Of a stretch of 64,000 nt of DNA, positions 3,436-56,362 are shown piece after piece. The stretch covers positions 376,952 to 440,951 of the forward strand of contig NMRA01000054.1 in NCBI GenBank assembly GCA_002633005.1, read 5' to 3'. Numbering within the stretch: the stretch's first letter is position 1; each line of letters opens with the position of its first letter. Position numbers and translations under genes: made by a program. The notes beneath the pieces are model-generated. The model was given only the letters and a program-made list of their open reading frames with translations, was not told the DNA's origin and ran no database searches. This DNA comes from Phoronis australis. Its lineage: Eukaryota; Animalia; Phoronida.

Positions 3436-4686
3436 GTGAGTCAGCAAAAGGAACATGTTGAGGGACTGTGCTGCACTCTGGTGGATTTAGGTATCTGTGA
3501 CAGAAGGTAGTCAGTATAGTTCACAGAAGATATGAAGTTATCATAGGTGTCCGTGCTTGTGAATTGGAGATTTAAGGTAATTATGTTATACCTTATCTAC
3601 AGAACTATAGATTTTAACTTGGTAAAAGGGTATATTTTTTGAAAGTAGAAAACCTATGGTCTTTTAAAATTTAGCAAAAAAGAAAGGTACATTTGGTATC
3701 AATAACGTGATCAAATTTCATTTATTTGATACAAATATTCAAGATGATATAATTTCAAAAACGCTGCTTTCTTTTTCTGTATTATTTTGTTTAATTCATT
3801 TTACGCAACTTATGAGTTTTTCATAGAAATCATAAATGTTACATTCTATTTTCTGTTAACACTTCATACAAAAGTGAAGCACTTTAAAGTCAATTTCTAA
3901 CATCGCTTAGAACAGTGCATTAAGCACGGTACCTTCACGTTAGAGTTTCATAGGATTCCAATCAATTGATGTTCCAAAGTTAGCCAAATTTGGACATTTT
4001 TCTAGGAACCTAAATGACTTTAAAAACTATGAAAGACTATAGAGATGTTGTTTGCAGGAAGATGTCTGGTGATAGCCATAGTAACAGACTATGTGTTCTC
4101 ATGTTGTGTGGCATGGTTACCCCTAAGCCATGTTGTAAGGGATGAGTTTGGCAACATTGCTACAACATGCAGTCAGTGTCTCAGGAATTTAAGACTTCTA
4201 TTTACCCATCACTCTTGTTACTTTAGTTTGAAGACTGAAGTGGTTGAGTCTGATCCTGGCCACACATTGTTTAGTGTGAGGTTGTTGATACATAATACAT
4301 TATGTGCAGCTTTTATTGAATTTGTTAATTATAATTAACTAAGTAAGATGATTGACAGGTGAATATTAACTAGATGCGAAAAAAAAAATATAAATCACAA
4401 ATTTTGGAACTTACTGTAAAGAGATTTCGCAACGCTGGGAAAATTATTTTACAATAAGTTACAGAAGTTGTAATTTTTATTTTTTTTCACATCTAGAATT
4501 AAAATATATTTGAAATAAAAGACTTCTTGATATGAGAAATGTGTCCCTAAATTTCTAATTTTTGAAATACTATCTATGACATGTGCATTGTTACAGTATT
4601 ATTTTTCAAGAGCCATTTAGTCCCGAACTGTGTTGTGTCATTTGTCCGTCCAGTGAGTTATAAGGAGCATAACGTGTTATTTGCAG

Positions 4687-4827
4687 ATTTGCTGGCGTAA
4701 CTGGATGCACGGCCTGCCACAGTTCACCATCTCAGCGGACACCAGCTACTCTGACATCATTGTGCCCACGTTGGACACCGTGAGGAATGCCAAGATCCTG
4801 GAGATGTTACTCACTACAAACAAAACT
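4687..4827 (+). CDS. DNAH1: Dynein heavy chain exon (absent from ORF track)
   Basis: ttgcag|ATT...ACT|gtaagt; ICWRNWMHGLPQFTISADTSYSDIIVPTLDTVRNAKILEMLLTTNKT (IIVPTxDTVR motif). Confidence 0.92.
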
Positions 4828-5112
4828 GTAAGTGGACAAGTTCTATGAATAGTGTGCACCTAAAGTTCCCTATCCTGCTCTGATTAGGTCAAGCCAAAAT
4901 TTCAAACTTAAATAAATCACGTTAGTGGTGGTAAATTTAGCTAATGAAGCTATCGATGAGCTTCATTTGATTTTAATGTCGTCTGATATCAAAATGTATC
5001 GTTAACATGCCTTGGATAGTTGCCGCATTCAACGTGAGATCAGTGGTGTCTGAATATGCTGCAGTGAATGACAACATTGAACTTCATTGAAATACTTACC
5101 TTTTCTCGGCAG

Positions 5113-5273
5113 GCCTTGTGTATTGGTCCCACGGGTACCGGTAAAACACTGGCCGTGGCTGACAAGCTGCTGCGAGGCATGCCAAAGGAATACGTCCCAG
5201 AGTTCATGGTGTTCTCGGCCAAGACCAGTGCCAATCAAACACAGGACTTGATTGATGGCAAGCTGGACAAGAG
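5113..5273 (+). CDS. DNAH1: Dynein heavy chain exon, AAA3 Walker A
   Basis: cggcag|GCC...AG|gtatgt; ALCIGPTGTGKT...FSAKTSANQTQDLIDGKLDKR. Confidence 0.96.
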
Positions 5274-5880
5274 GTATGTGTTTTTAAATTATTGGACGGT
5301 ACTTCTGAGACACGACAAGACTGATCATCTCTCCTTAGTGTCTATAAATAAGTTGCAGCTCTTGGTATTTTTCTCGTCTGGAATTGCAAGTACAATGTTC
5401 TAAGTAATGGGTGTTTAGCTAATGAAAAGTTTTAGAATAGCTGGCAGGCACGTCACTTCTGAGCAATAACAAATTCCAGCACTTCTGAGGTGAGTCTTGT
5501 GACACTATAAGTAGAGCACTGTATTCATTTTGATACTTGCGTGAAGTTTATAGTGAAAGTTAATATTTCTTGCTTAAAGGTCAGTTTGAATTGTTGTTAA
5601 GATTCTGTTAAGGTCAGTTTTTCAGTGTTTTTAAGTTGGTCATAAATACAGAACACATGAAATGATAAATTTTCTCTGAGATTTTTTACATTCCAATGGG
5701 TAACACAAAGCACAGCTCATGCCTCATATTAGCTAAATCAAAGAGAACTTTGCAATGAAAATTGTATACCTGAAAGAATCATCAATTTTGCAACACTTAA
5801 TTATTCCTTCTGAAATTCTATCGATTTTTTGCACCATTTTGTATCTTGTCAGTTCTTCTCTCTCACTTCCTCGTTCACAG

Positions 5881-6038
5881 ACGTAAGGGTGTGTTTGGCC
5901 CGCCCCTTGGCAAGTACTTTGTGTTCTTTGTGGATGATCTCAACATGCCTGCGCTGGAGGTCTACGGTGCTCAGCCTCCTATTGAGCTGGTTCGTCAGTG
6001 GATGGACTTCAAGGGATGGTACGATCGCAAGGCCATCG
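5881..6038 (+). CDS. DNAH1: Dynein heavy chain exon, AAA3 Walker B
   Basis: tcacag|A CGT...ATC G|gtgagt; [52 protein letters not shown]. Confidence 0.96.
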
Positions 6039-6586
6039 GTGAGTTTTCACCGGGGAATTAGCTGTTGTTCTAGACGTTGCTTAGCAGATTATCTTATTGG
6101 CAATGTGTTTGGTCTTACACAGTTGTGATTATGAAAACCCTTAGCTGATGATATCGCAAACACTTTTAAGTGTGGTCATTACACCACGTCACACATCACG
6201 TGACCTAATGAATATAAGTCTGTAAAGATTTCTGCCCCACATTCCACGCCGGTTTTAGAATTACATATTACGTAATTATGTTTATATAGTTGATAATGTT
6301 TTGGGAAGCATTGACTGTCCAAGTGTCAGCATTGAAAGATAACTGTAGCATTTGCTCGGAGAATACGTTAACACAGCAACTTTCAACAGCTTATTGGTTT
6401 GTTTATGTTATGATGATGCTCTTCAAAATAATGTGAACATTATCCAGTTTTAGTGCGCGTGAACATTATTCAGTTTTAATGCATGTGAACATTAAGGTCT
6501 GTCCTCATTTTAGAACCTTTGTCATAAGTAAGTACTAGTGACATGTTTTCATTTTTGACATATTTAGTTTGTTAATTCTTTCTTAG

Positions 6587-6760
6587 GCGACTTTCGTAAC
6601 CTCGTTGACGTCAACTTCGTGTGTGCCATGGGCCCACCAGGTGGCGGTAGGAACCCTGTAACGCCACGTCTGCTACGTCATTTCAACTTCCTGTCTTTCA
6701 CTGAGTTGGAGGATTCCAGTAAATTCAAGATCTTCAGCTCTATCCTAAATTCATGGACTG
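6587..6760 (+). CDS. DNAH1: Dynein heavy chain exon, AAA3
   Basis: tcttag|GC...ACT G|gtgagt; DFRNLVDVNFVCAMGPPGGGRNPVTPRLLRHFNFLSFTELEDSSKFKIFSSILNSWT. Confidence 0.95.
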
Positions 6761-7208
6761 GTGAGTGACGACTTCTTGACTCCTCAGTAGGAAATCTTGC
6801 CACACAGATATTCTGTGATTTCTTAGTTCTATTTAAGGGGATAAGTATGTATGTGAAATACACTTGGCAAGGCTGTTTTGGACTGGCAGGTCGACCTATT
6901 TTGTTTATGCGATGTGTTAAGCAAGACGTTGTGCCTCATTCACAATATATTGGTCGTCTTTGTAGTCTTTGGTGAATACTGCAAAATTATGATTTGTGTA
7001 ATTTTTGTTAGCTGTATCATTTCAAATCAGTTTTATTGATGATTCATTTGCATATTAGCTGTTTTTATTCATAAGCTGGAACAGAACGATGACTGACTAA
7101 ATTCTTGTTAATTACATTGTGGGCGTCTGGTTTGAATCGCACAAGATAGTGCAGTGAACCTTGTATATCGTAACCCAGATATTGTCGATAAATGCTTTGT
7201 ATGGACAG

Positions 7209-7244
7209 ATCCTGAAGATTCGTATGGCACCCACTATAGAGATG
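7209..7244 (+). CDS. Candidate 36-nt alternative micro-exon of the dynein gene
   Basis: ggacag|AT CCT...GAT G|gtatgg; phase 1 at both ends, matching the flanking exons; open frame DPEDSYGTHYRD; weak polypyrimidine tract. Confidence 0.4.
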
Positions 7245-7390
7245 GTATGGATTTTTTTATTGTTGATTTGCTTATTTATAGATTGAATTTCAATTTTTGT
7301 TCAGCTTCATTATTGTCTTGATAAAGTACCAGGTGAAGTTGTTTCTTGTCTTGGTTTCCTTATAGTGTCAATTCATGACCTTCTTTTTAG

Positions 7391-7417
7391 GACGATTGCC
7401 AAACTTGGCAGAACACT
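7391..7417 (+). CDS. Candidate 27-nt alternative micro-exon derived from a duplicated exon 5' end
   Basis: ccttctttttag|GA CGA TTG CCA AAC TTG GCA GAA CAC T|gtaagt; strong acceptor and consensus donor; frame-preserving; RLPNLAEH(C) resembles DEIAQHC of exon 8504. Confidence 0.45.
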
Positions 7418-8039
7418 GTAAGTTGAATGTGAATGTATGACTGCTAACATTGTATGACACACTACAGTGCAGTGTCTGTGTGCAACCGCAATTTAATGTA
7501 TTAGTAAATGGAGATTGATGCATTGCTGTGATTGACATATCTTGATTTGTTCAATCCTGTGACATCGTACTTACAGGTACATATTATTAACAGTTGTTGG
7601 ATAATAACTCACGGCATGGCCTGTGGCCCACGAGTGATTTAATATAACTTCCGGGTGTTAATATTAAAAGCTTGTGTTAATCATAGCTGTTGCTTGTGAC
7701 ACCATGTTGGACAGGAGTGATGAGAAAAAGCTTTGATGCTGCATGGAGGATGACAATGCGAATAATGTTTTATGAGTGCTTTTGCTTACTAAAAAAATCT
7801 AACCTCGATTAAAAGTTGGTTGCAAGTTAAGCACCACTGTCTGTTTGGTTTGGAGCGAAATGGTCTAGCTGTTGTCGATTCACACAGAAATGTCTCTTAG
7901 GTGCTTGTTTGTTTATGTCGAAAGTTAAAATAGTGGTCGAAAGTGTACAGACCATATTCATAGTTGTGGATGTCGGAATTTTACTTGTATGTTCACTCAT
8001 CACAGCCCAGGAAATTATCATTCATATTACCACGGTCTC

Positions 8040-8445
8040 TTGAAGCAGTAAATGAATGTCATTCAAATATAGTATGTGATGTCATAATTGGTGCCTTGTC
8101 CAACTGCAAATGTCCCTTATATACTCAAGACCTTAGGCATTCTAAAACATTTTGCATGAGGTCATCGCCTTAAGAAATTACTGAAACATTTGGAATTTGT
8201 TGCTTTTAATACAATGGCAAATGCCAGATCGCCATACTGCGTGAACTACTGGTGAATACATGTGTCAACACATGCGACACTATAAACAACCAAGTTTTGT
8301 TTATCCAGGTCTATGATTTATGTATGATGTTCACTAAACGTTCTTTGTGTTACAGTTAACTGCGATCAAACCACTGTGAACAATTGTTCAGTGCAAGAAT
8401 CGGTCTGTGTAACATCTTCTACGCTTAAGTGTTTTCCATGCCGTC
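8040..8445 (+). pseudogene. Cluster of decayed tandem copies (pseudoexons) of the dynein exon at 8504
   Basis: About 8214-8300 reads QIAILRELLVNTCVNTCDTINNQVL and 8356-8445 reads NCDQ/HCEQLFSARIGLCNIFYA*, versus the real EIAQHCEQLINTCINVYNTITTQLL. About 8040-8155 ends YTQDLRHSKTF versus YTFNLRDLSKVF. Confidence 0.7.
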
Positions 8446-8503
8446 TATACTGTTTGGCTTTATATTTCTCACTGCATTACTAAAATTGTTGACCGTGTTA
8501 CAG

Positions 8504-8682
8504 TTGACAATGATGAGATCGCTCAACACTGTGAACAGCTGATCAACACATGTATCAATGTGTATAATACCATTACCACCCAACTGCTACCAACACCTGC
8601 CAAGAGTCACTACACGTTCAACTTGAGAGATCTGTCCAAGGTGTTCCAAGGAATGCTTATGGCTCCCATCGATACCCTAAAG
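8504..8682 (+). CDS. DNAH1: Dynein heavy chain exon, AAA3 lid (absent from ORF track)
   Basis: gttacag|TT GAC...AAG|gtattg; DNDEIAQHCEQLINTCINVYNTITTQLLPTPAKSHYTFNLRDLSKVFQGMLMAPIDTLK. Confidence 0.95.
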
Positions 8683-9068
8683 GTATTGAGAGTTTTGTTA
8701 GTTTTAAATAAATGAGTGTCACTTAGCTTACACAGGGCTCGATGCTTAGCATAACCTCAACTCGCCAAATGCAACCTGGCAAAATTCCCAGGTCGCCCAA
8801 TGAGAAGTAAGCTTCCCATAACACAAGAAACCTTGTTTGCGGGATAAGAGTGTACTGGCCTTCACAAACAACACTTAGTTGGCAACAGTTGAAAATGAAA
8901 ATATAAGATAACTGAATTGAAAACTGGGTCAACTGGGAGCTCAGGCGGCATTTTGATGATGATTAATTCCTACCTGGGGGCCCAATTTCACAACCTCATA
9001 CCCAGGAGAAGCAAACTATCACAAGACTGTGCATTTGATTGAAAAATACTCTCATTTTCGCTTGACAG

Positions 9069-9302
9069 AGCTTGGGTGATTTGCTGCGACTTTGGTACCA
9101 CGAGAGTTGTCGTGTGTTCCAAGACCGTCTGGTGAACGAGGAGGATCGCATGTGGTTTGACAACTTGACTCGGCAGAAGATGAAGGAGGACTTCCGTATG
9201 GAGTTCGATGAAGTTGTCACCCTGACTCCCGTGCTCTACGGTGACTTCATGGCTCCCAACATGGACAACAAGATTTATGCTGAGATACAGGATCATGCAA
9301 AG
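9069..9302 (+). CDS. DNAH1: Dynein heavy chain exon
   Basis: tgacag|AGC...AAG|gtaact; SLGDLLRLWYHESCRVFQDRLVNEEDRMWF...LYGDFM. Confidence 0.95.
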
Positions 9303-9899
9303 GTAACTGACTAGTTAGTCTGGGGTTGGTAGGATGATGTCATTCTGTATTACCAGTTATGTTCTGGTAATACTAGCGTCACAGTATGTGTTGTTTGGGT
9401 AGCACCTCATTCATGATATTAGACACTACAGTGTTGCATAGATTTTTTTGTTTCAAGCTAAATTTGCAAACAAGAACTGCTGCTCCTTTGTTACTAAATA
9501 CAACTCCGCTAATGATTATGCCCTGCCTGTGTCCTATTTTTCTTCTTGTTTATTTTTACTTTATGCCTATGCTAGAAGTATTTGATATCTTTTCAAGTCT
9601 TAGTTCCCGATTTTTGCTCTTCCTGTTCACGTTCCCTCTGAGATAAAATCCTTTCTAACACTTTCTGGGCATAACCCTGGTTATTGTACATTATATCTTT
9701 CATAATAAACTTTGAAAATTTTATGTTTGATATGTATAACATGGAGAGTTGTTTATGCCCAGATCAGATGAACAGTTCAATTTGTTTTATCATTACTACA
9801 CCCTGTCTTCTTATATTTTTATTTCGTATCTTTGTAATGACTGTCTTGGGCTGCACCTAGTCCTCAGGGTGATCCATTGACATTTTCCTTCTTTTGCAG

Positions 9900-10096
9900 A
9901 TGACCAAACAACTGGAGGAGTACTTGGAGGACTACAACCAGGTGAACACAGCACAGATGAGACTGGTGTTGTTCATGGATGCCATGAGACATGTCTGTCG
10001 TGTCACCCGGATTATACGCCAGCCATTGGGTAATGCCCTCCTGTTGGGTATGGGCGGCAGTGGACGTCAGAGTCTCACCAGACTATCTGCACACAT
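9900..10096 (+). CDS. DNAH1: Dynein heavy chain exon, AAA4 P-loop
   Basis: ttgcag|ATG...CAC AT|gtaggt; [41 protein letters not shown]. Confidence 0.96.
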
Positions 10097-10471
10097 GTAG
10101 GTGCCATTTGGAAGTATTGAGCGATAAATGGTCGATATGCAGTGTTACCAGTGCTTTCTCTATGCGTATATTAAGCAGTTTGTGTTCATGTGTTAGCGAA
10201 ATATTAGACAATATATACTCTCTAGTGTATGGACAATTTTGTACTAGAGGTCAGAATAAGCAGATCAGTGTGTGGTGTTTCTGTGTGCATTTTTGAACAA
10301 AGATGTATTTCTGTATTGGACCAGTTGTATGTATGGACATAGTGTGGTAAAGTTCATTTATCACCATTTAACTATTAGGTTGAAACAGTCTAGTAAACAA
10401 GGTTGATGCTGAGTCTTCTCACATTAAGCTCTGTTGACGGTTTGGTCATAACAAACTTTCTCATTTTTTAG

Positions 10472-10607
10472 AGCCGATTATGAGTGCTTCCAAATCGAGT
10501 TGTCCAAGAACTATGGGTTGACAGAATGGCGTGATGACTTGAAGAATGTGATGATGAAAGCAGGACTAGAGGCGCAGGCAACGGTCTTCTTGTTTAGTGA
10601 CACACAG
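10472..10607 (+). CDS. DNAH1: Dynein heavy chain exon, AAA4
   Basis: ttttag|A GCC...CAG|gtatgc; ADYECFQIELSKNYGLTEWRDDLKNVMMKAGLEAQATVFLFSDTQ. Confidence 0.95.
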
Positions 10608-11644
10608 GTATGCAGCACAGTTTGTGATTCTGGTCACCTGAACAAGGCCTTGTTTTGTGGAGTAATTGTCTCGGCACAATGGAATATATTGTGTTTGTGG
10701 TTTGTTGTTGAGTTTATAATAAAATAGCCGTAACGTATTAACAATAAGCACAAATTTCCTTTAATTCGTAATGCTGAAAGCAACTAAGTTTTGTTAGTAA
10801 TGTAACAATCACTGACAGACTATAAGTCACATTTGATATTTTTTCTTGTGTAGCATGTGTCAGTGTATAGTTTCCAACATGTTATCCAAGTCAGCTGTTA
10901 AAGACTATCTTCAACGATAACACCTGTAAATTTGGTTCCTACAGTATGTTAAGAGCATCGCTCTGAGCCCTCTAGTTCCATAAATTGCCATCTGTAACGA
11001 ACTGTTTGGTGTATTGGCTTGGTTTAGTCTATGTGGCCACGAGAATCACCTTTTAATTCAAACAGCTACAAATAACAACCGCACACTTTGATGTTTTATT
11101 CAGACCCCTATTCAATACAACCTTTTATTGTTTGTGCTGGGATCTTGCGGTGATGCAACATGGCATGAAAAGGCAGCTTCACTTATCATTTGACGGGCTT
11201 ATATTAAAGTGTTTTCTTATTTTACTTAGGCTTTGCTAGGACTATCTGGTTAGCCCAATACATCTAAAATAACAAAATTCCGTTCAAGTTAGGCCTTAAA
11301 CAGTAGCAGTGTGTAGAATTGATACGCAAAAATGTTCTGTACATGCAACAAGAGCAGTGTGCCCTGTGAGGCCATTTCTGTTGTCGCCTCTTTTCCATCA
11401 TTTTCAAAATGTCTTCCTTGATGGCTTTTCACAACGTTTTATTAACAGCCACTGACATGCATTGATTTTGTGATAGACCCCACTTTCATAATTTATTCCG
11501 TTATTATGGCATTGTCGTCTACGAGTTAGCCGTTAAATGTTAATACAGTTTTCTGTGTGGTGATAAACTCTCTTGCCAATACCTGTTTGCTGTTTCCCAC
11601 CAACAGTCACAGTCCAGTTAAATACAAGCTTTGACTAATTGCAG

Positions 11645-11853
11645 ATAAAGTCCGAGTCGTTTCTTGAGGACATCAACAACATTCTGAATGCTGGTGATGT
11701 GCCCAACATTTACAGCTTTGACGAGCTGGACCAGATCTACACGGCCATGAAACCCATCGTGCAGGACGCTGGTCAACAGCCAACTAAGACCAACTTGTTC
11801 TCAGCCTACACCAAGAGAGTCAAGTCGAATCTGCACACAGTCATAACAATGAG
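11645..11853 (+). CDS. DNAH1: Dynein heavy chain exon, AAA4
   Basis: ttgcag|ATA...AG|gtgaga; IKSESFLEDINNILNAGDVPNIY...NLHTVITM. Confidence 0.96.
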
Positions 11854-12055
11854 GTGAGAGTGATCTTGTGAAACTGGCCATTCACTAGTTTGTTGCTCTT
11901 GTTGAGCACAACAAATTCTTCAATTGTTTTGAGCAAAACTGACCATCAAAGTTGTGTTTTCTGTTGTTCAGAAGTATTTCATGTCTATTTCTATTTGCTT
12001 TTAATTTTCTTATGAAGTTCTGTTCTCTGTAAATCATAAGCTCTATAATCTAGGA

Positions 12056-12237
12056 ATTTGTTGATATTGTCCACTTAAAAGAGATTTGTTGATATTGTCC
12101 ACTTAAAAGAGAGATTTGTTGATATTGTCCACTTAAAAGAGAGATTTGTTGATACTGTCCACTTAAAAGAGAGATTTGTTGATACTGTCCACTTAAAAGA
12201 GAGATTTGTTGATATTGTCCACTTAAAAGAGAGATTT
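12056..12237. repeat. Intronic minisatellite, 30-bp unit, about 6 copies
   Basis: GAGATTTGTTGATAYTGTCCACTTAAAAGA repeated almost perfectly. Confidence 0.95.
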
Positions 12238-12416
12238 TGTAAAAGCAAAATGTAAATCGACACATAACTGATTATCAGATATTTCTTGAAAATTAATTGT
12301 CTCGCTGTGTATATGTGGGTAAGAAACAGCACTTGACTGCTCCCTGCTTTACCAAAGTAATGACATGCATGTAGCTTTTAATTGGTGGCTGAAAATAAGT
12401 GGATTTATCATTTCAG

Positions 12417-12588
12417 TCCCATCGGTGAGGTGTTTCGCGCCCGCCTACGTCAGTTCCCAGCTCTGGTCAACTGTTGCACCATCGATTGGTTCAGTGAGTG
12501 GCCACAGGATGCGCTGGAATCAGTGGCTCTGCGCTTCCTCAACGACATCCCCGACCTGGAATGTACAGATGATGTCATGAACGGCTTG
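12417..12588 (+). CDS. DNAH1: Dynein heavy chain exon, AAA4
   Basis: tttcag|T CCC...TTG|gttagt; PIGEVFRARLRQFPALVNCCTIDWFSEWPQDAL. Confidence 0.96.
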
Positions 12589-12810
12589 GTTAGTGGTTCT
12601 GATTGTTGTAATAAATTCGGTGTTTGATTTTTTCTTCCCGTGTGTTGTTTGGTAATTGAGCCATGGCTCATCTGATTAAAATTTGTGTGGAAATCTTTCG
12701 TAATTAAGTGAAATACTGTCAGCTGTTAGAATAAGTCATGGTAGGTTTTGTTGATATCAACTCGTCGTTCTTGCCTGTGTTTCACATTTCTAATTTTCAC
12801 CCTTTTTCAG

Positions 12811-13002
12811 GTGTCTATGTGCCAGATTATTCACCAGTCGGTGCACAAGAACTCAGCCATGTTCTTGGCCGAGCTGTCTCGCCACAACTACGTGACCCCG
12901 ACTAGTTACCTGGAGTTGCTTGGTATTTTCTCCAAGTTGATTAGTATGAAGAAAGATGAACTGTTCGGGGCACGTAACCGCACCAAGACTGGCCTTGATA
13001 AG
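12811..13002 (+). CDS. DNAH1: Dynein heavy chain exon, end of AAA4 and start of stalk
   Basis: tttcag|GTG...AAG|gtgggt; RHNYVTPTSYLELL...RTKTGLDK. Confidence 0.96.
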
Positions 13003-14058
13003 GTGGGTTGGAATGAGAGGAATGCCTCTTTAGCTATGTTGTAGATTGTAACCACAAACTTCAATTGAAACTTGTCTTGCAAGTTAACCAAATACATGGC
13101 ACACTTTGAGTAATCTTATGAGTTTCATGTCATGTGATTGGTTAATTGTCCAGTCAAGTCTTGCAGTAAAATTTGGTGGTCATAAGTCTTGGCCAGAATT
13201 TAATATGAAATGCATTTTATACTTGGGCTCATTTAGTGAGTGTGGTGGCATGTCTGTTCTTTAACACTGAAAGAGTTTAATTACCAAAATTACCTTTTGT
13301 CTTCTTTTGAATGCGACATGTAATCAATTCTTACCAACTCTTGTTTTGTGACAGTTAAAATAAAATGGTATTAAATATTAAAATATTCCCCGCGTTTTGA
13401 GCAATGCGCTCTTTATCAAGGGTATGACACAGATACAGAACGCATCGCTCGAACCGTGTTGAATATTTTGACATATTTTAGTACCGATGCTCGTTTTATT
13501 TTTAATATTTTTACTATTTTATATTCTTATTCGTTGGTAACTGCATGACATTTCAGCATCTATTTGATTTATTTATTCATAACAAAATAAAATTCCACTT
13601 GTCTAGGATATTTTATGCTAAACATGTGAGGAATTTACTGCAAAATAATCAAATTGAGGAATATTTTCAAACAGTGCACTCTTGACTTGTTCTTTTTGTA
13701 TGACTCCACAAGAATATATATACTTGTTTTGTCAACAAAGTAGGTAGCTGACGTCTTTCATGGCTCAGCTGTAGGTGAAGGTCACTGCTGTTGCTGGTTA
13801 ACTTCTCAGTTAGGTATTCAGAAATTCTGTTAAGGATCACGCTGTAAACTTGTGATTGGTTAGAAATTACACAAGTCCATTTCGTCTGAAGATAATATTA
13901 CATCCAAAATGTCTGTTACATCTGAAAGTCTGTTACATCTGAAGAGGTTCCACTTCAAATGCCATGTATTTATTATGTTTGATGCTAACGTAATCATTTG
14001 ATCAAAGCAAAAGTCGTGATGTTCTATTCCTGACTCGCATGTTCTGCTCCGTCTTTAG

Positions 14059-14178
14059 TTACTGTCAACGGCTGAAGATGTCGCCAAGCTACAGGAAGAG
14101 CTAGAGACGATGGCGCCTCTCTTGGAGGAAGCTGTCAAAGAATCTGTTGTCACCATGGACCAGATTGCTGTGGACTCT
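14059..14178 (+). CDS. DNAH1: Dynein heavy chain exon, stalk coiled coil CC1
   Basis: ctttag|TTA...TCT|gtatgt; LLSTAEDVAKLQEELETMAPLLEEAVKESVVTMDQIAVDS. Confidence 0.93.
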
Positions 14179-14317
14179 GTATGTATTTAAACAGTATTCT
14201 TTGTGTTACAAGTTAAACTTGCTATTATAGCTCAACAATGTGGTTTTGTTTTTTGATAAAAAAATGGTGTTTATTGGATTTTTTGTGGTGTTCTAATGAT
14301 AACGTCTTCCCCTGTAG

Positions 14318-14443
14318 GCGGTGGCGGAGGAAACAAAGACGGTGGTACAGAAAGAAGAAGCTCAAGCAGCACAGAAGGCACGTGAGACGCAGGCCATAGC
14401 AGACGATGCGCAGAGAGATCTCAACGAAGCTCTGCCAGCTCTG
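14318..14443 (+). CDS. DNAH1: Dynein heavy chain exon, stalk CC1
   Basis: ctgtag|GCG...CTG|gtgaga; AVAEETKTVVQKEEAQAAQKARETQAIADDAQRDLNEALPAL. Confidence 0.94.
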
Positions 14444-14972
14444 GTGAGACACGGCTATTAACTAACCCCTTTTGCAATCCCAGTTGCAATTTAGCTATGG
14501 ATATTTATAGTCGACAGCTGCAATAATTGTGTAGTAAAAATGAGCTTCATTTATTTTTATTGGTACATAATCATAACTGCATCTGAATAAAGTCATTAAT
14601 TGTCTTTGCATTATGAGCAGCCAGTTTCGAATGAATCTTGAAAGTGGCACCTTGCAATTGTTCTCAGTGTAATTTGATTGTTGAGCATCAGATGTCAATG
14701 AGAGAATCACTTTTGTATCAAGCCTATATCATGTGGAATTGTCCTCTACTGTCTAATTAGTAAATGAAGACAGCTAAGCGAGTAAATTGATTTATTTTAA
14801 GGATAAAAGTGTGAAAGGTGTCTTATGCCCTGCAAAGAGTGAACCTGTCTGCGTAATTATTGAATGGTGAAGAACTAAAGCATAATAATCCAAGCGGGAT
14901 GTGCCTTAAGTTACTGTGATTGTTAAAGCTCTGCTTTGAAATCCCCACTACCAAATGCATCTCTGTTTATAG

Positions 14973-15122: not shown

Positions 15123-15443
15123 GTATGTTGTCTGTGGTTTAGATTGAAATAAGCCAAGTTTTACTCAGGATTTATCAATGTTTTTATTTTTAAGTATTGA
15201 AAGTTTTTCTCTTAAAAGCTGAGCATTGCCCATTGTGAAATAATTATCATAATTTGTTTGACAGGTGTGAAAGCTTTGAAATGTCAGAGCCGGCTCTGCA
15301 CATCTACTTGATAGTTATTTAGTACAAAATTAAAATATAGTGCAGAGACAAACAGTTTTTGTTAGAGAAAAGTCAGTGGACATGACTGTACTCGACGAGA
15401 ATACTTTTAAGCTGATTAAGGAAAATAGATATAGAAAGAAGTG

Positions 15444-16227
15444 TGTACTTAAACGTCTAAGCAAATTTCTTAATGTCAGTACTCTTAAGACATTTTACCA
15501 TTCTATTGTTCAGCCTCATATTGATTATTGTTTACTGGTTTGGGGGCATACTAGTGACACACTTGTCAGCAAAGTACAAGTAATTCAAAATGGAGCCGCC
15601 AGGGCTATCCTGGGTACTAGAATTAGGTACACCAGGGTCGATGACTTGTATTCCAAGCTGGGATTTATGAAAATAAGACAAAGAAATAAATATCTCTCTG
15701 CCTGTTGTATGTACAGAATGTATCAATGGCTTGGCTCCAGCATATCTCAGCTGAAAATTCAATAGCAATCAAGCTGTATATTCTACACGCTCTTCTGTCG
15801 CTGGAATAGTTTCTCTTAAAAAAATTAAAACCGAGACCGGCAAGAGATCTTTTATCTGTGCTGCTACTACAATATGGAATTCTATTAGCCCAGAAATTAA
15901 ACAGTCCAATTCAATAAATACTTTTAAACTTAATATTAAAAAGTGGCTGTAAGTTACCTAACCTTTTTATACACTACCTGTTTTAATCATGTCATTTTTT
16001 TCTCATTGTCATAAATACTCTCACTGTTTAGAGTCATTTTATCTCTCTTAGTTAAATTTTCACCATTGTTTGTCATTTATTTATTGTCTTAATTCTCAAC
16101 CTAATTGTTATTTTATTACTTCATTGTATTATGGTACTGTTTTTGTTGTTGAGGGCCCTCTTGGAAAGCAGTGCTATCACTGAAGAGGTCACCCTCGTTT
16201 TAAATAACACAATAAATAAATAAATAA
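15444..16227 (+). mobile_element. 5'-truncated non-LTR retrotransposon (CR1/L2/Crack-like), 3' end of ORF2 plus 3' UTR and tail
   Basis: Peptide ...TLKTFYHSIVQPHIDYCLLVWG...VQVIQNGAARAIL..., then a frameshift to ...GKRSFICAATTIWNSI...FKLNIKKWL* (stop about 15950). A stem-loop-like GAGGG...CCCTC precedes a (TAAA)n tail. Possible 5-bp TSD AAGTG at 15439-15443 and 16226-16230. Confidence 0.85.
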
Positions 16228-16291
16228 GTGGCTGAAAGTCCACCTCACTTGACTGAAACTTGAGCACGTTCCACTCTTGTGTCCACCACAG

Positions 16292-17491: not shown

Positions 17492-17654
17492 TTGGTGAGG
17501 GTATCCACTATTGTGAGGGTATCCACTATGGCGAGGGTATCCACTATGGCGAGGGTATCCACTATGGTGAGGGTATCCACTATGGTGAGGGTATCCACTA
17601 TGGTGAGGGTATCCACTATGGTGAGGGTATCCACTATGGTGAGGGTATCCACTA
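17492..17654. repeat. Intronic minisatellite, 18-bp unit, about 9 copies
   Basis: ATGGYGAGGGTATCCACT tandem copies. Confidence 0.95.
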
Positions 17655-27654: not shown

Positions 27655-27740
27655 ATCTCTCTCCGTCTCTCTCCTTCCCTCCCTGCCTCCCTCCCTCCCT
27701 NNNNNNNNNNNNNNTCCCCTCGCTCCCTCCCTCCCTCTCT
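27655..27740. repeat. (CCCT)n/CT-rich microsatellite interrupted by a 14-N assembly gap
   Basis: Pyrimidine-rich repeats on both sides of Ns at 27701-27714. Confidence 0.9.
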
Positions 27741-55956: not shown

Positions 55957-56362
55957 TGTTGATTTACTGTCACCCCAAAACAATGTGTTGATTTAGTGTC
56001 ACCCCAAAACAATGTGTTGATTTACTGTCACCCAAAACAATGAGTTGATTTACTGTCACCTCAAAACAGTGTGTTGATTTACTGTCACCCCAAAACAATG
56101 TGTTGATTTACCATCACCCCAAAACAGTGTGTTGATTTACCGTCACCCCAAAACAGTGTGTTGATTTACCGTCACCCCAAAACCATGTGTTGATTTACTG
56201 TCACCCCAAAACTGTGTTGATTTACCGTCACCCCAAAACAGTGTGTTTATTTACCGTCACCCCAAAACAGTGTGTTCATTTACCGTCACCCCAAAACAGT
56301 GCGTTGATTTTCTGTCACCCAAAACAGTGTGTTGATTTACTGTCACCCCAAAACAATGTGTT
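55957..56362. repeat. Minisatellite, about 29-bp unit, about 14 copies
   Basis: TGTGTTGATTTACYGTCACCCCAAAACAR in head-to-tail copies with no spacers. Confidence 0.95.

Follow-up and report, generated by a model that had tools for sequence, protein, structure and literature searches.

An optional microexon, two broken exon copies and a candidate second microexon in one DNAH1 intron of Phoronis australis

Introduction

Avian ANP32A carries an in-frame, skippable insert of 29-33 residues that arose as a partial duplicate of a neighbouring exon and whose function was tested, as set out in the available text of bioRxiv 10.1101/274613. In the Fgfr IgIII region of Bilateria, alternative exons were gained independently in several phyla at one conserved intron position, some of them by duplication and others unlike their neighbours, according to the consulted sections of PMC5703972. 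For the dynein heavy chain genes, the portion consulted of PMC3228551 describes mutually exclusive exons that arose by tandem exon duplication in the cytoplasmic dynein DHC1 of Schistosoma mansoni, and convergent tandem-exon events are covered by the review PMC9741552, of which excerpts were available.

Here we present an intron of the axonemal dynein heavy chain gene DNAH1 of Phoronis australis, located at 6761-8503 of the window, i.e. of the 64,000-nt stretch of DNA that was analysed (contig NMRA01000054.1, positions 376,952 to 440,951, forward strand). The intron contains an optional 36-nt microexon (M1) and two broken tandem copies (A and B) of the start of the next exon, and an older third copy at 7391-7417 (M2) probably serves as a rarely used 27-nt microexon by way of a gained in-frame donor; to this reading as a whole we assign a probability of about 0.6. 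As in ANP32A, a partial duplicate of a neighbouring exon would have become a skippable in-frame insert, but DNAH1 holds several stubs at different stages, with inserts of 9-12 residues, and the use of M2 is inferred. With Fgfr the locus shares the gain of unlike alternative exons at one conserved position in several phyla, whereas the DNAH1 site is a motor-domain turn of an inner-arm dynein and the evidence from other species consists of protein gene models, not genomic exon maps. As in DHC1, a dynein heavy chain gene has exon-derived sequence in the intron next to the exon; unlike there, the DNAH1 copies are incomplete and without paired splice sites or frame, and the spliced piece is added to the exon instead of being swapped for it. 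The mechanism is already known; the DNAH1 instance was not found in the literature searched, which yielded nothing on splicing at this junction, and whose supplementary alignments and exon tables could already contain the inserts.

Gene and protein features

DNAH1, which is important for the motility of sperm and cilia, is the gene encoded by the exons around the intron. All named entries among the 120 long proteins listed bear this name, and the best PDB matches of an orthologous fragment are three DNAH1 chains. Top scores for 4600-14500 came from limpet, abalone, other gastropod and nemertean proteins with 75-77% identity, which makes a lophotrochozoan origin of the DNA probable. The gene model over 312-24230 comprises 26 exons and 25 introns, all GT-AG. 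Homology to DNAH1 ends at residue ~3490 of ~4220 though 40 kb of the window remain (24230-64000), and a run of N lies near 27700; an assembly gap, a misjoin or a truncated gene is possible.

The exon upstream of the junction (6587-6760, + strand) encodes the end of the AAA3 large domain and the first lid helix and closes with a phase-1 donor (RNA joints, Pfam AAA_7). The constitutive exon downstream (8504-8682, + strand; RNA joints, site scoring, Pfam) carries the AAA3 lid helices and the PTPAKSHY motif, is the template of the copies, and is where the AAA3 lid begins according to Pfam AAA_lid_1 and DYN_lid. Both the exon at 8504-8682 and the donor at 6760 had been placed correctly by an earlier sequence-only reading of this DNA, as exon modelling and RNA joints agree. 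The acceptor at 8504 is fairly weak (4.0 bits, in the lowest quarter of 25). In the AlphaFold model of an orthologue (P0012), the junction is predicted to be a 3-residue turn between the helices 190-205 and 209-232; the mean pLDDT of the model is 61, with local values of 74-92 at the junction.

RNA reads and the cassette microexon M1

Four RNA runs with the same species label were used, two of which (X1 and X2) express DNAH1 on the + strand, whereas X3 and X4 have no reads over 6540-8735. Reads at least 99% alike made up 80 of 88 and 79 of 83 in the two expressing runs. Joints were called from 3 reads up and 18-19% of each run was read, so that a joint would have to occur in about one tenth to one fifth of transcripts to be called.

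M1 (7209-7244, + strand) is a frame-preserving cassette microexon of 36 nt in phase 1-1 that adds 12 residues (DPEDSYGTHYRD), with both inclusion and skipping junctions in X1 and X2. Inclusion is supported by 8 and 10 reads for the joint 6760 to 7209 and by 8 and 18 for 7244 to 8504, the skipping joint 6760 to 8504 by 2 and 3 reads, so that inclusion amounts to about 80% of junction reads and is seen in both expressing runs. The region 6761-8503, previously taken as a single intron, is thus interrupted by a spliced exon in most transcripts. Some authors set a strict microexon limit of 27 nt, which M1 exceeds. On matrices built from the splice sites of the gene itself the M1 acceptor scores low (-1.9), and the site score is not a complete detector because this true acceptor ranks low. 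A TGC stands upstream of the M1 acceptor. The neural Srrm/eMIC microexon programme is characterized by neural-specific, regulator-dependent inclusion.

The intron is selectively retained. Outside the exons, sense-strand depth in 6761-8503 is 1.6 and 0.9 in the two runs, on both sides of M1, unlike in the three flanking introns, where the non-repeat bins have a depth of 0 against an expectation of about 14 and 8 reads.

Broken copies A and B of the exon start

With lenient gap costs, DNA alignment yielded no usable signal (best p 0.017), so stricter scoring was adopted. A local comparison of the DNA of 8474-8700 with the intron then gave two matches beyond chance, neither of whose scores was reached by any of 2000 dinucleotide shuffles (shuffle maximum 37.5). 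Copy A (8194-8293, + strand, score 46.5) is identical to the region of exon 8504 at 63 of 100 aligned bases and duplicates the acceptor region and the first ~80 nt of the exon; its acceptor is lost, with no in-frame AG between the upstream stop and the start of the copy. Copy B (8331-8416, + strand, score 45.5, 59 of 86 bases identical) retains an intact acceptor (8354-8355) with the same sequence as that of exon 8504, GTGTTACAG followed by TT at the start of the exon, but has a 7-nt deletion and no usable donor. Both copies are dead.

The sequence-only reading had claimed five decayed copies. Those at 8356 (same acceptor, 7-nt deletion, stop) and at 8214 (acceptor lost) correspond to B and A and are borne out, while those at 6966-7035 (global p 0.105, local p 0.95) and 8040-8155 (global p 0.218, local p 0.83) are at chance level and the one at 7391 is of a different kind. 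Its remark that the other introns hold nothing similar holds, since among 50 comparisons of the 25 introns with their flanking exons only that of this intron with exon 8504 was significant.

The offsets of the copies to the exon (148-155 and 289-290 nt) fit a head-to-tail unit of ~145 nt. On their own, the intron-derived halves of these postulated ~145-nt units gave no significant alignment (p 0.93 and 0.46), nor did copy A against copy B (p 0.61). A frameshift-tolerant profile of 131 other dyneins found no significant copy in the intron (best p 0.09), and none of the copies reaches the conserved PTPAKSHY core. The repeated local tandem duplication of acceptor and exon start that had been proposed is upheld for A and B, and an older third case is probable; the splice products attached to it are not upheld.

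An assembly artefact is excluded, since the identity of the copies to the exon is just 63-69% and RNA reads extend over 8094-8389. At 8252, inside copy A, 4 of 4 and 1 of 1 RNA reads have C for G, probably a polymorphism. Rfam gave 0 matches over 5500-10500.

Alternative 3' splice sites and mutually exclusive exons were the products expected by the sequence-only reading. A related explanation is that the acceptor at 8356 functions as an alternative 3' splice site, diverts some transcripts to decay and so tunes the DNAH1 level, the retained-intron reads being its trace. The 11-mer GTGTTACAGTT is exact in copy B, the remainder of which is about 69% identical, and sense-strand intron reads occur in this intron while its neighbours are empty, both as that explanation would have it. 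Retention is, however, also expected around an alternative microexon, and the acceptor scores 2.8, below 8504. No joint of at least 3 reads in X1 or X2 leads from an upstream donor to 8356, nor to 6966, 7391 or 8214, every listed joint into the exon entering at 8504, and depth at 8390-8463 is zero in both runs, against read-through from 8356. Use of that acceptor would give a frameshift and then a stop, and rare or decay-sensitive use would escape reads at this depth. We consider this explanation very improbable. Alternative splicing does occur at the motor-ring loop, as had been foreseen, in the mode of cassette microexon inclusion that had been overlooked.

A second explanation takes the copies as relics of an array of full-length, mutually exclusive exons, with 8504-8682 as the sole survivor. 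Such exons are found in the Schistosoma dynein mentioned above, copy A has 25 codons free of indels and stops, and a donor-like GT lies 186 nt past 7391 (7576, 6.0 bits). The mismatches of copy A by codon position (9/7/13), on the other hand, follow the pattern expected of a neutral copy beside a constrained exon, and purifying selection on the copy is unnecessary to explain them; the full-length copy 7391-7576 that the distant GT would delimit is ruled out by comparison with the whole exon (p 0.24). The copies cannot be mutually exclusive exons because they cover at most about half of the exon (~80 of 179 nt); A is without an in-frame AG, B is frameshifted with a donor (8408) of -0.3, and the spacing of A, B and exon (about 145 nt) is less than the 179-nt exon. 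The near-invariant core PTPAKSHYTFNLRD, which should be the last part to decay, is in no copy, and no substituted form of exon 8504 was seen among the isoform sets examined. This explanation is largely refuted, and we give it hardly any credence.

Candidate microexon M2

The stretch 7391-7465, described earlier as a decayed long copy, is not one: against the exon it gives a local DNA p of 0.77, a protein p of 0.06 and a borderline global DNA p of 0.046 (top 0.7% of 818 AG-anchored windows). Its first 27 nt (M2, 7391-7417, + strand) constitute a candidate microexon in phase 1-1 whose peptide, GRLPNLAEH, lines up in register with the first residues of exon 8504 and resembles orthologous exon starts. 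A pyrimidine-rich TAG precedes it and GTAAGT follows after 27 nt, the donor T/GTAAGT sitting where exon 8504 has T/GTGAAC. On the same matrices the acceptor scores 7.1 bits (3rd of 76 AG) and the donor 8.2 bits (1st of 137 GT in the intron), and M2 is the top in-frame candidate microexon of all 25 introns (19,455 intron bases).

Against a profile of 120 orthologous exon starts, the first 10 codons of M2 rank top among 7319 AG sites in the window, a score matched by 3 of 5000 shuffled introns. With an orthologue-only profile the peptide RLPNLAEHC scores 12.5, close to the orthologue median of 12.3 (real exon start 8.4). At a position where exon 8504 encodes Asp, M2 has retained the Pro that 79 of 120 orthologues share, which suggests that M2 is an older duplicate of the exon start. 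Identity to the exon start is 10 of 27 bases (per-site p 0.15) and the in-register permutation p is 0.013, with the best score at shift 0 of 25; M2 was chosen by eye ahead of testing. M2 thus appears to be homologous in register with exon 8504 from the acceptor on, as for an exon born by partial duplication.

In X2 exactly 28 bases are covered in 7384-7427, with empty neighbouring bins. From this depth arithmetic, under a leftmost-joint convention, we infer a single read that was spliced across 7391-7417; among the joints listed for X1 and X2, none enters or leaves M2. Two further AG sites (6838 and 8309) have CACT 24 nt downstream, 2 of 73 new sites with a post hoc p of 0.03. The site at 8309 opens on a stop, and that at 6838, in register with M1, M2 and exon 8504 and with the open frame GDKYVCEIHL, is possibly a still older stub (likewise post hoc).

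For M1 the corresponding in-register comparison gave a BLOSUM permutation p of 0.014 and a profile p of 0.078, and M1 is possibly a much older stub. At the DNA level there is no local similarity of M1 to exon 8504 (p 0.15; in register 11 of 27 bases, p 0.075). That result speaks for two unrelated things in one intron, namely an ordinary microexon M1 made from intron sequence and neutral duplication debris (A, B, and M2 as a dead stub or a chance likeness with cryptic sites), and the lack of an M2 joint among the listed joints points the same way. Debris under neutral decay should not have kept together what M2 joins, namely the best donor of the intron, an acceptor of high rank, a frame open over 27 nt and a significant match to the orthologues.

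Inserts at the same junction in other animals

Protein gene models have inserts of 6-17 residues at this junction in mussels, a limpet, a hemichordate, a tunicate, percomorph fish and tetrapods. Isoform models with and without the insert exist for Mytilus (10 residues), Patella caerulea (6), Ptychodera (17) and Styela (10), and a 13-residue insert is present in the models of one swan and absent from those of another. Among 50 vertebrate sequences 19 are off the standard spacing: the insert has 13 residues in frogs, birds and a bat, as it does in the three DNAH1 chains of the PDB, and 10 residues in tunas and bass. In the 120 listed long proteins, a list biased against inserts because the query lacked one, the spacing is that of the insert-free form in 93 and is extended by 7 or more residues in 6.

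Recurrent insert positions in DNAH1 are 2033 (11 of 18 isoform groups), 2125 (5), 2336 (5), which is this junction, and 3749 (4); the 5 of 18 groups at 2336 are additional to frogs and percomorph fish, and the waterfowl case is a comparison between species. From these models the junction appears to be a recurrent hotspot of alternative splicing, with unlike inserts in several lineages and forms with and without the insert in one species; it is a hotspot but not unique, being one of four recurrent DNAH1 sites. In P. australis the introns 429-2734 and 3436-4686 correspond to the sites 2033 and 2125, and the in-frame candidates at 1445-1501 and 4234-4275 could be this species' versions of the inserts there.

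The tetrapod 13-residue insert ([DA]GLLG[ED][KR]SY...V) lies at the same junction as M1 and M2, 29 residues before PTP, and is found in some isoform models of one frog species and missing from others. It is not demonstrably homologous to M1 or M2 and, on protein models, is a putative exon. Vertebrate read-through ORFs depart from the consensus 29 residues before PTP; judged by these and by the insert position, the inserts of the other lineages would be separate exons.

Compared in register with its own downstream exon start, the tetrapod insert gives p values of 0.0002-0.02 (mammal and bird 0.003-0.007, frog about 0.02), and M1, M2 and the tetrapod insert are each best at shift 0 of 25. Combined in-register p values are 0.02-0.04 for seven inserts without M2; of 13 inserts located elsewhere in DNAH1, none has p<0.02. 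Derivation of inserts from the start of the next exon is suggestive only, because the likeness was noticed by eye before testing. Several of these comparisons fit duplication debris beside an unrelated M1. Five of six other-lineage inserts have no in-register BLOSUM likeness to the downstream exon (permutation p 0.10-0.97 for Mytilus, Patella, Ptychodera and Styela, 0.64 for percomorph fish), the other species alone combine to p 0.11-0.18, and the other recurrent insert sites, including 2033 with its 11 of 18 groups, are without such likeness. The best score at shift 0 for both M1 and the tetrapod insert stands against that explanation, which we judge unlikely although it deserves serious consideration.

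Other features of the window

Short repeat fragments at 6192-6238 and about 8756-8800 draw reads from elsewhere on both strands, and loose read ends near 6238 carry GGACTCGAACCC, which we take to resemble a tRNA-derived SINE. Within the intron 15123-16291 two open stretches (15334-15949) may represent the end of a non-LTR reverse transcriptase. Young tandem arrays occur at 12056-12237 (30 nt), 17493-17654 (18 nt) and 55957-56362 (29 nt); local tandem duplication is common in the region.

Proposed mechanism and implications

Under the reading preferred here, with two broken copies, the optional M1 and a third copy turned microexon, head-to-tail duplications of ~145 nt across the weak acceptor 8504 would each have produced a spare 3' splice site with an exon stub lacking a donor. 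Such donorless stubs would decay, as A and B did, because they can yield only frameshifted and probably degraded message. A stub that gained a GT donor at a distance divisible by three would become a symmetric phase-1 cassette, as proposed for M2 and, possibly long ago, M1. The AAA3 lid would accommodate the M2 cassette, since the added residues fall in a short turn that links two of the lid helices. The predicted effect is a long-loop and a short-loop form of the inner-arm motor, probably differing by cell type.

A wider and more doubtful proposal is that the intron is a microexon nursery, in which repeated duplications spanning one weak acceptor left A and B dead, M2 young and rare and M1 old and dominant, and that the 13-residue insert of tetrapods, mammals included, was born independently in the same way at the same turn, for cell-type-specific tuning of inner-arm dynein. 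It draws support from the best scores at shift 0 of M1, M2 and the tetrapod insert, from the combined p of 0.02-0.04 and from the 0 of 13 inserts at other sites; we rate it as rather improbable in its entirety.

Microexons are too short for homology to be retained, so that where they came from is difficult to trace. The DNAH1 intron combines dead stubs, a candidate with measurable likeness to the exon start and an established microexon, so that birth by partial exon duplication becomes testable here through close relatives. It also draws attention to a junction in the motor domain of DNAH1 at which several animal lineages have optional inserts.
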